Positions 656 to 56,370 of a DNA stretch of 64,000 nt are shown piece by piece. Where the stretch lies: assembly GCA_964016885.1 (NCBI GenBank), contig OZ024740.1:179304001-179368000 (forward strand). Reading direction: 5' to 3'. Source of the stretch: Eledone cirrhosa. Lineage: Eukaryota. How positions within the stretch are numbered: the stretch's first letter is position 1; every line of letters begins with the position of its first letter. The position numbers were made by a program, and so were the translations under genes. The notes beneath the pieces were generated by a model. That model was not told the DNA's origin. It saw nothing but the letters and a program-made list of their open reading frames with translations, and ran no database searches.

Positions 656-1110
656 AAATAAGTAAGTCAAACATGTTAAATTTGGCTTCGTTTATTATAA
701 ATTCTCTGCTATATATATTTTAGTGACAGCTATTATTGGCTGTGACCTCATCGGGCAGTACGAATTAATGTAGAAAAAACAGGTAAACATGTTGTTGAAA
801 TGTGTTCCACTCTGTCAATTCATCAACATGTCCAGCTCCTGGGTGTGTTGTTAGTCCTCTGAGGAACTGGGATCATGGAACTGGAATCAGATATGATTCC
901 AGTTACTCGGAGGACTTCCCAATAAGGTCACAGCCAATAATAGCTGTGACTGAAATATATATAGCAGAGAATTTATAATAAACGAAGCCAAATTTAACAT
1001 GTTTGACTTACTTATTTTACATTACTCCGGAGTAAGCAAACCAACCTGCGTACTTAGTCGAGTACTCCAATCTCCATACTGAGGTGTCGGCAACCAACCA
1101 ACATACTCAA
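656..1110. mobile_element. PLE fold-back remnant (family B) between (TA)n tracts
   Basis: Inverted arms 656-748 / 925-1018, right arm extended by a ~90-bp tail; decayed HHR at 706-758 (minus); homologous to 2385-2662 and 48602-48830. Confidence 0.8.
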
Positions 1111-1125
1111 TATATATATATATAT

Positions 1126-1300
1126 CAAGATGGATTTAGGTTAAAACTGGTTAGTCCACTACTCACTAGAGGACTCGATGCTTGGGGTAGTAGTGTATGG
1201 TTATATTATAGAGTGTCAGGACCCCGTACGGCTGAGCTCTTTCCGTTTGAACAGCTTGAAACGCAAGAGCTAAGCCGTCGTTGCCCTGACTCTTTTTAGT
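1126..1300. mobile_element. Small fold-back remnant related to the 3' end of the 51-53 kb PLE
   Basis: Hairpin GTCAGGACCCCGTACGGCTGAGCTC...GAGCTAAGCCGTCGTTGCCCTGAC; shares GGACCCC-ACGGCTGA with 21438 and 51055; flanked by (TA)n. Confidence 0.6.
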
Positions 1301-2474
1301 GTATATATATATATATATATATATATGCTCATTAATGACAACAGAAGCCAGATTGGAAACGTTCTTTAAAATTACAAGAGTTACCTCCCTCACACCCTAC
1401 CTAATCCTTTTTCTTAAATAAATTAAATATCACCCAGCAAGAATTGCTTCCCCCTGTATATTAACTCTCTAAAAAGGGAAATCATATCAAACCTCAGTCC
1501 ACCATTTGCCTCCATCACGGAATCATGGATCAACTAAACACTCTTGCTATATTAATACATTTTGATCTGCTTAACTTCAATGACTGTGCTTGTAAATAAC
1601 ATTATTTTTTCTTCCACATTGACTTTTTACGTTCCACATTATGCACGTTTTTTTTCCTTTTTCTTTTTCTTTTCACTTCTTAAACCTTGTTTGTAAATAA
1701 CATTATTCTTTCTGCACCTTCTGTTTAACATGTGCGACACCACACTAATACATTTCACTATCATTTGATAATGCATATAAATGGTGAAACCGGTAATAGA
1801 CAATAATTAAATATATAAATAGATAAATAAATGCCATTGTTAAATAATAAATAAATCAACTAATACCTTAACACTTCACACAAAGTAAAACATTTCGTTT
1901 TAATCAGTTTCTAACCCAGAAAAAAGAGAGAGAGAAACAAAAACGGGAAAAAAAAATATTTTTCTTCCTCCTAATCGTCTCTTTCTCCCTGTTTTCATAT
2001 ATATATATATATCCTAACTCGTGTGCTTCCTCTCCACATGTTATTATTATTATTATTATTATTATTATTATTATTATTATATATATATATATATATATAT
2101 ATATATATATACTGTCAAAACAGGGTGATAGTGATTGACCTGCTAACTGACCTGATCGCACCACTGCCACTACAGGCAAGTAGGCCAACTGGACCAGCAT
2201 ATATATGCAATTAAAAGCCACCCTAACAGGCTGACTTGTTTCTAGGAAATCTGATCGAAGAATTTCATTAGACCTACGGCTGGGGTGTTGATATGATATC
2301 TGACCAATGAGGTGAAGGTATGTCCTTTGGATGCTGGAATTCATTCATTCTCAATCATATGCTTTCCGCTCCTTGGATGGATACCCACCATACTCCGATC
2401 TGAACATATCAACGAATTAACAAGGTTAAATCTATTCCAACATTTTGTTTTCCTGTTTTTCTGTTCAAGTTCTA

Positions 2475-2533
2475 GCTGCCTGATGAGGTCATAGCTGTTG
2501 AATAATGATTATCACTGAAATATATATAGTAGC
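2475..2533 (+). ncRNA. Type-I hammerhead ribozyme motif (family B)
   Basis: GCTGC-CTGATGA-stem II-GAAA-TATATA-TA-GTAGC; stem I GCTGC/GTAGC. Confidence 0.7.
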
Positions 2534-53390: not shown

Positions 53391-53829
53391 ATAAGATCTG
53401 TATATATATCAAGTGACGTTTTGATGAATAAACACATGTACAGAGAACCCCACAGACAAATTATTGCATACACCATTTTAGTTATTTACACTTAAATGAA
53501 CACAGTAGCTTATGATAATCATATATACCAAAACCTATTAATCAGTTTAGGCCAGTACCTATTAAATGAAGACTCTTATATACACACACACGTACACACA
53601 CACGCAATCAAAGACACACACACACATTCACTCCATACACACACACACACACACACATATATATATATATATATATATATATATATACATACATATATAT
53701 ATATATATATACATATATATACATATAAATATATATATATATATATATACATATATATATACATATATACATATATACATATATACATATATATATATAC
53801 ATATATATATATATACATATTTTTTAATC

Positions 53830-54036
53830 GATCGACTTTCGTCAAATCGGACCGAGGAAACAATGTTTTCGTTGGTCTTTCCAGTTGCTAATACTATCTA
53901 TCGGTCGCAACTCCAGGTAGAAGGAGCAACGTGAAATAAAGTGTCTTGTTGCTCAAGGACATAACGCATCGCCCGGTCCAGGAATCGAACTCACAATCTC
54001 AAGATTGTGAATCCAATTCTCTAACCACTCAGCCAC
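53830..54036 (-). mobile_element. tRNA-derived SINE (V-like family relative)
   Basis: GTGGCTGAGTGGTTAG (A-box)...GAGTTCGATTCC (B-box)...GTCCTTGAGCAACAAGACAC; head duplicated in inverse at 54217-54284. Confidence 0.8.
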
Positions 54037-55284
54037 ATATATATATATATATATATATATATATATATATATATATATATATATATATATATATATATAT
54101 ATATATATATATATATATATATATATATATATATATATATATATATATATATATATATATGTGTATGTATATATATATATATACATACACACATATATAT
54201 ATATATATATATATATGTGACTGAGTGGTTAGAGAATTGGATTCACAATCTTGAGATTGTGTGTTCGATTCCTGGACCGGGCGACGGTTCTTATATATTT
54301 GATATATATTTATCCTTATTGAGCCCTCTTTGGCTTTTAGTCTTCAAATTTATTATTACTATATATATATATATATATATATATATATATATATATATAT
54401 ATATATATATATATATATATATATATATATATATATAGTAATAATAAATTTGAATAAGGATAAATATATATCAAATATATAAGAACCGTAGAGCAAATAT
54501 TTATTAAAATAACAAAAAGCGAAGGTTAGTTTCAAAAGATCCCGTTAAGGGTGAAAGCAGCGATTCTTTGCTTAAACTTTAATCTGTTATTTTAATAAAT
54601 ATATATATATATATATATATATATATAATGTAGGAGGTGAGTTTTATAAAGCAATTTTAACTGATGAAAACACAAATGTTATTGCATGATGATATTTGTA
54701 TTTGAAATGCGCATAATAAAATACATGGAATTCATTTAACCATCTTTTGATCTTATATATTATATATATATATATATATATATATATGAGTTAATGTGTG
54801 TATATGTGAGTCTTCATTTAATACGTTCTGGTTTCACCTCATTGATAGGCCTTGGCATATAACATTAATATAAGTGTAAATGTGTGAGTTTTTATAGCAA
54901 TGTAGCTAACTGATTTCATTTTCTTTCACTTGGTTTCACTTTCTTTCACCCTCACTGTCTATAACTTAAATTATGTCTCACACACACTAGTGTATACAAC
55001 TATACTCATTATGCCGAGCCGCATAACAGAATAGGGATGTGCATATGTATATATGTATATATATATGTATATATATATATATATGTATATATATATATAT
55101 ATATATATATATATATATATATATATATATATATATATATATATATATATATATATATATATATGTATATATATATATATATATATATATATATATATAT
55201 ACATATGTATATATATATATATATATATATATATATATATATATATATATATATATATATATATATATATATATATATATATAT

Positions 55285-56370
55285 TTCGTTTCTGAATTTG
55301 TTTAGCAAGATTCTTTATCTGAAATCGTGTGTTGAAACCGATATTGTTATACTTTGGAAGGGTCATGTTGCCAATAAGAAACACACGCACTAGTTGCTAT
55401 TACTTCAATTTATTATAATAAATTTATAAATTTAGGAATTTATAAATTTCCGGTTGGTTGGTTCCACAACTAGATGGTTGTTTATATATTGTAAAAGTTC
55501 TTTTGTCACACATTCTGTGACCTCTTCAGTGACTGGGGATTATTTTCTTTGTTTTTTGCTGCCTCTCCTTTGTTCTGTCCTACGCCATCTTGTTTTTGTG
55601 TGTGTGTTGTGTGCTTAGTTTGCGCATGTGTTACATCCGGGTGTATGTGTGTGTTTATATTCGTTTCTTTATTTGTTTATTTACATGTTACTGGTTGGTC
55701 GTTTGTTCTATGTGCGTGTATGTTTTCATTTTGTCCTTAATTGTAAGTTGTGATGTTGCTGTTCGACTAATGTTTTCTATTTAATTTTGGTTGTAATTCA
55801 TTTATGTTTATTGCCTCTGTGATTTGTCTAAACATTGCGTCTTTTCTGTGTGTAGATTCTATTTTTATTTCTATGTTCTCTAATTTACCCTTATGTTCTA
55901 TTTTAGCATGTTGGTAGAGTACAGATGATTTTTTACTATCTTGAAGGTCTCGCCAGTGTTCATTTATCCGTTCCCCTATAATACGAGCTGTCTCACCTAT
56001 GTACACTATATTTTTATCTCTACATTGTCCTTCAGTACATCTTATGCTATATACTACATTTCTAGTTTTACAGTTAATATGGGGGCTTATTTTACAGATT
56101 ATACATTTCTTATCTATACAGGGAGGTCTTTGAAAAGGGTATGTATTGCTAATAAGTCTTTTTATGGAGGTACCTGGTCTTTCTACTATCTTAATATTGA
56201 GTTTATGTTTACAACATTCAATCATAAATCTCATTACAGCTTATCCTTCTAAATTTGTAAGCTAATTCACCTCTAGGGTTTGTATCGATGAACATTACAC
56301 TCTGGTAGTTATTGCTATCATACCATGAGTTTATTATTGGCAACATGACCCTCCCAAATTATAACAATAT
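55285..56370 (-). mobile_element. PLE (family E) with GIY-YIG endonuclease ORF 55767-56234 and a short inverted arm at 56334-56370
   Basis: Cys-rich linker C-x4-C-x2-C-x7-C, NVVYSIRC...YIGETAR...RINEH...RQITEAI.I....PKLN. Confidence 0.9.

Follow-up and report, generated by a model that had tools for sequence, protein, structure and literature searches.

One-tailed, head-to-head ends of Penelope-like elements in (TA)n tracts of the Eledone cirrhosa genome and their possible origin by twin priming

Inverted, 5′-truncated copies are published for Penelope-like elements (PLEs), with an optional tail that often stands at one end and is typically 30 to 40 nt long, as are a (TA)n preference of the Hydra and Naiad clades and the presence of Hydra-1_Obim and Naiad families in Octopus; PMC8557442 names the formation of inverted structures and the preference for microsatellites as open questions. 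According to PMC11167929, both strands of AT-rich DNA are nicked and extended by the purified Poseidon-clade enzyme PAc of Anolis, which begins reverse transcription at two sites that bracket a tail and is predicted to form a dimer. We analyzed a 64,000-nt stretch of the Eledone cirrhosa genome (contig OZ024740.1 of GCA_964016885.1, positions 179,304,001 to 179,368,000 of the forward strand; hereafter the window), in which a first-pass annotation had listed 13 fold-back intervals beside (TA)n tracts and read them as PLE ends. To this published background the present analysis adds a near-strict rule that an inverted insertion carries one tail, the sharing of rare variants between its arms, junctions at which the arms do not overlap, and a helix in the tail. 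Twin priming for PLEs, a measured one-tail rule and the tail helix were not found in the accessible literature, outside of which most subscription papers fall, including earlier PLE reviews.

All 13 intervals contain inverted arms (38 to 592 nt, 82 to 98% identity in per-cassette local alignments), and each alignment score exceeded the maximum from shuffled sequence, the weakest being 1126–1300 (31 versus 18), so the fold-backs exist as described. A run of four or more TA units stands no further than 10 nt from the left boundary in all 13 cassettes and from the right boundary in nine, the remaining four right boundaries standing 19, 57, 68 and 86 nt from TA; most do abut (TA)n, as had been claimed. 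One arm had been said to extend 60 to 135 bp beyond the other in most cases, which agrees with the 56 to 134 nt by which one arm runs past the other in 11 of the 13. The single tail has an exception at 27640–27985, where ~60 extra nt stand at both sides, and 41570–42380 proved to be two opposite-orientation cassettes of one family flanking a third palindrome. The description of the families as mutually unrelated in sequence was overstated: the fold-backs at 49685 and 55285 belong to a single family (88% identity across 847 nt in self-comparison), and most families have a hammerhead ribozyme and a tail helix in common.

That the fold-backs are PLE ends, as had been proposed, is close to certain, and coding links for five families and the hammerheads speak for it. 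Genome searches were made with eight cassettes or cassette parts, two tails and one neighboring arm, and each search scored 40 candidates and favors query-shaped copies. Across these copies, 3′ ends are fixed and 5′ extent is variable. Five of the 12 families of the listed cassettes are linked to open reading frames (ORFs), A, B, D and H of Hydra type and M of Neptune type. An ORF for reverse transcriptase (RT) and a GIY-YIG endonuclease ends ~870 nt upstream of family D in many loci, family M lies 219 nt downstream of such an ORF, family H copies continue upstream into a related one, the family B terminus closes the ORF remnant 53485–52240 of the window, and a Hydra-like C-terminus stands 903 nt upstream of family A in locus L316, with the intervening sequence present also in L338–L340. 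The family A cassette is likely the 3′ end of a Hydra-clade PLE. Partial tandems (pseudo-long terminal repeats, pLTRs), 5′ truncation and an inverted 5′-truncated copy, which are hallmarks of endonuclease-bearing (EN+) PLEs, are all present.

A strict type I hammerhead with a closing stem I occurs in 9 of 14 family consensuses, compared with 5 of 2800 shuffles. It is present in the family A consensus, family D passes only the relaxed core, and among the 14 consensuses scanned the script found none in B, E, G and I; the core of family E is degenerate. Family G is putatively a PLE, by a degenerate hammerhead read by eye and the common architecture. Most of the hammerheads have a palindromic loop 3, as described for PLE hammerheads. 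A first, simple scan overlooked most of the motifs found later, and an Rfam scan gave no hammerhead family among the 120 matches listed, only sub-threshold hits that were mostly microRNA hairpins.

By their motifs, the families appear to be new members of known clades, mostly Hydra, with one of Neptune type. The proteins of family D and of two other Hydra ORFs have the DKT motif, an RWK-like motif, a CxCx5C linker and CxxC and CxH flanks, and no CCHH, and the protein fragments of families H, B and A are ~37 to 58% identical to them. This resembles the Hydra clade, including Hydra-1_Obim of Octopus bimaculoides, for which PMC8557442 gives DKT, R-x-R-W-R, the CxCx5C linker, CxxC and CxH around a conserved E and N, the lack of a cysteine pair from GIY to YIG, a hammerhead near the 3′ end and (TA)n targets; it lists one such family in Octopus, whereas here there are at least four ORF-linked families and many relatives. 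Family M has the CX2-5CxxC linker of Neptune type and the CCHH cysteines inside GIY-YIG, and it differs in its tail of 57 nt without the tail helix; its placement is by motifs. In the Hydra and Neptune ORFs that were recovered, the endonuclease stands at the C-terminus, unlike in Naiad and Chlamys, which are recognized by an N-terminal GIY-YIG and no hammerhead. Families E and F are ORF-less, non-autonomous units of ~540 nt (tandems joined by (TA)3-6) and ~1.3 kb (in tandem, with a 5′ start like that of Hydra family D), respectively. In their short tandem units, with minimal type I hammerheads and a palindromic loop 3, families E and F resemble the non-long terminal repeat retrozymes and the non-autonomous PLEs described in bioRxiv 10.64898/2026.07.22.740005 and PMC4209133, and they differ in being mostly truncated head-to-head cassettes in (TA)n and, for family E, in a core that is only degenerate. 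We also observed a Hydra element with an uninterrupted 738-amino-acid ORF and a long inverted partial copy (L274:262-4800), and three separate family H copies (L284, L287 and L304) that each contain a short interspersed nuclear element (SINE) at, or close to, one shared TTATTT site immediately 5′ of the hammerhead core.

Each of the nine families mapped has two 3′ end positions, 57 to 129 nt apart, and cassettes use them in a nearly fixed pairing. One tail was present in 105 of 111 paired cassettes, two tails in six and no tail in none; at the 50 loci that had not been fetched for the family concerned, the counts were 47, 3 and 0. For the end counts we used 800 kb of random genome and 21 families, including 200 kb fetched after the references were built, and found one tail in 39 of 41 cassettes and none in two, or one tail in 9 of 10 within the 200 kb held out. 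Independent choice of start site would give one tail in at most half of the cassettes. In the families compared with the Hydra clade the tails are 62 to 129 nt long, and in the nine mapped 57 to 129 nt, compared with the 30 to 40 nt typical of PLEs, and the rule is near-strict here.

Partner arms differ by a median of 3.5%, compared with 6.0% between copies, and share rare variants in 146 of 504 cases versus the 2% expected from family allele frequencies (~14-fold). Cassettes measure 159 to 1745 nt (10th to 90th percentile), and junctions could be resolved in 86 of the 105 with one tail: 35 have microhomology of 1 to 6 nt, four are blunt and 44 have extra or unaligned bases. At seven of the 86 the tail arm ends inside the tail, so that the arms do not overlap and no hairpin is possible in those cassettes. 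At 15 of the 41 unbiased junctions the tail-less arm extends past the tail arm by more than 20 nt, and at three the reverse holds. The arm ends lie no more than 5 nt apart at 29 of the 86, of which 23 are from families B and H. At the inner site, nine families have a TA-like run of 2 to 7 nt (mean 3.7 nt versus 1.7 in the null, p = 0.008), and an RYTC...GARY helix starts near this site in 17 of 23 tails (ACTC/GAGT in 12, GCTC/GAGC in four, GTTC/GAAC in one) whereas shuffles average 2.6 and reach at most 8, a test made after the motif had been noticed in the same tails. The helix is lacking in the Neptune family M and in five short-tailed families, and the tails are not strongly folded as a class, with z < −2 in only 3 of 9. 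The tail helix may be a cis element.

We consider it reasonably probable that each cassette is a single 5′-truncated, head-to-head PLE insertion in which both nicked target strands primed on one RNA at two fixed sites. The GIY-YIG domain would nick both strands of a (TA)n tract; one 3′-OH would prime at the outer site and copy the tail, and the other would prime at the inner site, aided by the short TA-like run. The outer-primed enzyme would then halt in the tail, leaving arms that do not overlap, or displace the first complementary DNA (cDNA) and read on, leaving arms that do. Such displacement, which we infer from the overlapping arms that need it, would be possible because the RNA is not degraded; to our knowledge, PLE RTs have no RNase H domain. 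The two cDNA ends would be joined through microhomology or end joining and filled in, and TA left at both sides of each event would keep the tract a target and let arrays grow. If each target strand takes one of the two sites and both copy a single RNA, it follows that cassettes have one tail and that their arms have variants in common, as do non-overlapping cassettes and a usually longer tail-less arm. In L1 twin priming, both target strands likewise prime on one RNA and leave microhomology at the junction, but the position at which the second primer anneals varies and the arms are free of overlap; in the Eledone cassettes the two sites are fixed, and most arms overlap in a long inverted duplication.

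The one-tail rule, the variants common to both arms and the non-overlapping cassettes yield specific predictions in vitro. PAc resembles the Eledone families in its two start sites bracketing the tail and in the nicking and extension of both AT-rich strands, and the genomic counts link two such sites to the two arms of one insertion, which the accessible passages of PMC11167929 do not. We hold more tentatively, at somewhat below an even chance, that the genome records PLE integration directly: every inverted insertion would be twin-primed on a single RNA whose two start sites are both obligatory, with TA microhomology and a conserved RYTC/GARY helix, recognized by the Hydra protein, marking the inner one. 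Dozens of such families, with ~170,000 cassettes by extrapolation, would then make up at least a third of the TA-tract edges of this genome, and automated annotation would probably misfile them as miniature inverted-repeat transposable elements (MITEs) or unknown repeats.

Several observations weigh against twin priming. The published enzyme is of the Poseidon clade, and its start sites are reported in PMC11167929 to have no homology to the target, unlike the inner sites here with their TA-like run, and no difference between strands. The common variants could come from gene conversion between arms, snap-back copying or two RNAs of one locus. In 15 of 29 family A loci, a tail end has no inverted partner within 1.5 kb; in the old family C, only 10 of 26 arm ends abut TA; and families C, E, F, G, I, J and L showed no consistent ORF link in the loci examined. 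The close arm ends in B and H fit snap-back at structured spots equally well; identical arm ends as proof of one broken RNA were dropped, being mostly confined to these two families.

The strongest competitor, which we regard as unlikely, is that a PLE cDNA folds back on itself, or an antisense transcript primes itself, and is copied towards the 3′ end, the product then being linked with the opposite end of the target or with a second, short cDNA. Arms copied from the same template would share rare variants, many palindromes have loops of a few nucleotides with fold hot spots at the hammerhead stems in B and H, and the junction microhomology is also in keeping with it; antisense self-priming has in fact been proposed for head-to-head PLE palindromes (PMC3846280). 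Snap-back alone, however, cannot place a tail on the shorter arm and leave the longer arm tail-less, the arrangement that prevails by 15 to 3 at the unbiased loci, and it cannot yield the seven non-overlapping cassettes; a second priming event is required for it anyway.

The partner is the closest arm in just 66 of 154 comparisons, a figure that suits a protein dimer in which each target strand has an RNA of its own and the choice of start site is inherently asymmetric; the predicted dimer and two-strand extension of PMC11167929 point the same way. We regard this as improbable, because rare-variant sharing at ~14 times expectation would then need a single source locus or later homogenization of the arms.

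Far less probable still is that the cassettes are TA-targeting MITEs or other terminal inverted repeat (TIR) DNA transposons, or products of fold-back repair at (TA)n cruciforms. They are short, mostly non-coding and flanked by TA, with inverted arms, and for the annotator they resemble MITEs; TA-centered tail-to-tail fold-backs, such as repair might leave, occur at 7 of 657 tracts. Family H at first appeared to be a fixed palindromic unit, 40 of its best 40 matches having one fold point, and this was rejected when a search by tail alone recovered variable fold points and lengths and copies that enter the RT/GIY-YIG ORF. Where a MITE would have fixed symmetrical ends and a fixed length, fold points and lengths vary here, and constant 3′ ends combined with 5′ truncation of varying extent, tandems and hammerheads characterize retroelements; for families A, B, D, H and M, this whole reading is refuted. 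An assembly or fold-back read artefact, conceivable because palindromes beside long (TA)n are hard to sequence, can be set aside, since the arms are diverged by the median given above (as the first-pass annotation had argued), family-specific ends recur on different chromosomes, and contigs from a separate public sample show the family D fold-back with many different fold points and cross its right junction into unique flank.

PLE insertions of many families pile up in TA tracts, which are hotspots, as had been proposed. In the 800 kb of random genome, TA borders 93 of the 110 ends with a tail and 84 of the 96 without one, compared with 860 of 20000 random positions (4.3%) under the same rule; 12 of the 21 families were defined from TA edges, which builds part of this rate in for them, and the nine defined from window cassettes have a like rate, except for family C. 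At least 246 of 657 complex edges of TA tracts are recurrent termini, the corresponding counts for (CA)n and (TC)n being 20 of 237 and 2 of 65; one low-complexity cluster contributes 40 of the 246, and there are 78 clusters of four or more. The further proposal that insertion lengthens the tracts was unsupported by a weak test, in which median lengths with zero, one and two known termini were alike at 30, 39 and 32 nt (n = 322, 152 and 33; p = 0.11). Of 39 candidates for a filled site with an empty counterpart, almost every one was a tandem duplication or an internal repeat, and no pair was informative; the internal TA tract of family E (10 to 28 nt, 51 copies) had too few interrupted copies to be of use. 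A read joint skipping 656–1109 in two runs, a possible empty site, was not used, its flanks being repeats and its matched side no more than 22 nt. Any target-site duplication would be concealed within (TA)n. Some tail ends of families H and L have (CA)n or (TC)n before the TA run, perhaps from slippage on the last bases of the element. Separately, 42378–42950 and 53969–54284 have the geometry opposite to that of PLE cassettes (arm, (TA)n, inverted arm; 97% identical), the former also containing three tandem 61-nt units, and such TA-centered fold-backs possibly derive from local repair at a TA hairpin.

The window is no exception within this genome, and the cassettes are not peculiar to it, so any impression that it is unusual was overstated. 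Tracts of (TA)6 or longer make up 4.5% of the window and 4.4% of 600 kb of random genome (60 × 10 kb), with 21 fold-backs in the window and 122 in the random sequence. Cassettes with TA at one arm and TA 25 to 170 nt past the other number nine in the window and 34 in the 600 kb, from which roughly 170,000 can be extrapolated for the 3.0-Gb genome. Thirteen families alone match ~6% of the 600 kb, a figure slightly inflated by a SINE piece in one reference. The claim that 48.4 to 56.4 kb is almost all PLE and TA held for the pile-up itself and not for its completeness, as 48398–56413 (8016 nt) comprises 5551 nt of PLE, 1241 nt of TA and 1224 nt of other sequence, including a SINE with a tRNA head. 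The features of the window are collected in Table 1.

Table 1. PLE cassettes and related ends in the window
Feature	Position	Strand	Details
Family A cassette	656..1110		Tail-less arm 656-759, spacer, arm 914-1017, tail ~93 nt
Old family-B-like cassette	1126..1300		Arms 1212-1251, 1256-1293; tail ~86 nt; 71-78% similar to family B termini
Diverged relative of family A	2397..2663	+	Intact hammerhead motif 2480-2528
Family C cassette (old family)	2675..3118		Arms 2809-2956, 2960-3117; tail ~134 nt; no ORF link found
Family D cassette, Hydra-clade PLE 3′ end	5985..6355		Arms 6077-6209, 6223-6355; tail 86 nt
Family E cassette	8012..8727		Arms 8012-8220, 8415-8627; tail ~99 nt; non-autonomous
Family F cassette	18620..20553		Arms 18698-19292, 19956-20552; tail 69 nt; hammerhead 18817-18753 (-)
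Second family E end	20578..20899	-	TA tract 20554-20573 common with family F cassette
Family B 3′ end with tail	21348..21848	-	
Family G cassette	27640..27985		Arms 27706-27809, 27822-27925
Family H cassette, Hydra-clade PLE 3′ end	28040..28549		Arms 28040-28226, 28235-28421; tail 129 nt; fold at hammerhead 5′ edge
Family I cassette	28569..28888		Arms 28569-28636, 28703-28768; tail at least 100 nt
Two opposite family J cassettes	41559..42380		41559-41816, 42031-42380; inner palindrome plus tail 41827-42010; hammerheads 41662-41613, 42288-42337
Family L cassette	48920..49163		Arms 48988-49063, 49084-49159; tail 62 nt; hammerhead 49097-49126
Family M (Neptune-type) cassette	49687..50687		Tail 57 nt; long arm, GIY-YIG fragment 50519-50133 (-); inverted tail-less arm 50506-50687
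5′-truncated Hydra-clade PLE	51045..53485	-	Remnants of RT thumb and GIY-YIG, 53401-52240; ends at the TA tract in a tail-less family B terminus
Second family M cassette	55284..56370		GIY-YIG ORF 56240-55767 (-), Pfam GIY-YIG 23.1 bits (cut-off 22.6); inverted arm 56326-56370
Pile-up in successive TA tracts	48398..56413		PLE ends of families N, A, L, D, M, B, Q and one SINE

Within the long TA array, 50834–50902 is a family M cassette reduced to ~70 nt, in which 25 nt of tail-less arm adjoin 46 nt of tail. SINEs with a tRNA head lie at 53821–54037 and 45490–45960; copies of the former often sit between two TA runs, so SINEs likewise collect in TA tracts. Mobilization of these two by PLEs was considered and rejected, as copies elsewhere are plain SINEs, many of them in TA tracts. 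An abundant SINE-like repeat occurs in both orientations at 1–276, 11650–11780, 24296–24702, 30716–30880, 32277–32507, 36305–36505, 47972–48131, 57822–58036 and 63496–63824. The 3′ end of an ORF of a long interspersed nuclear element (LINE), which we take to be RTE-like, lies at 16628–17507 (+) and has C2H2 zinc-finger similarity below the Pfam cut-offs. Diverged opposite-strand fragments of a GC-richer element, probably also a LINE, stand at 46096–46945 and 59809–61233 with 68 to 75% identity.

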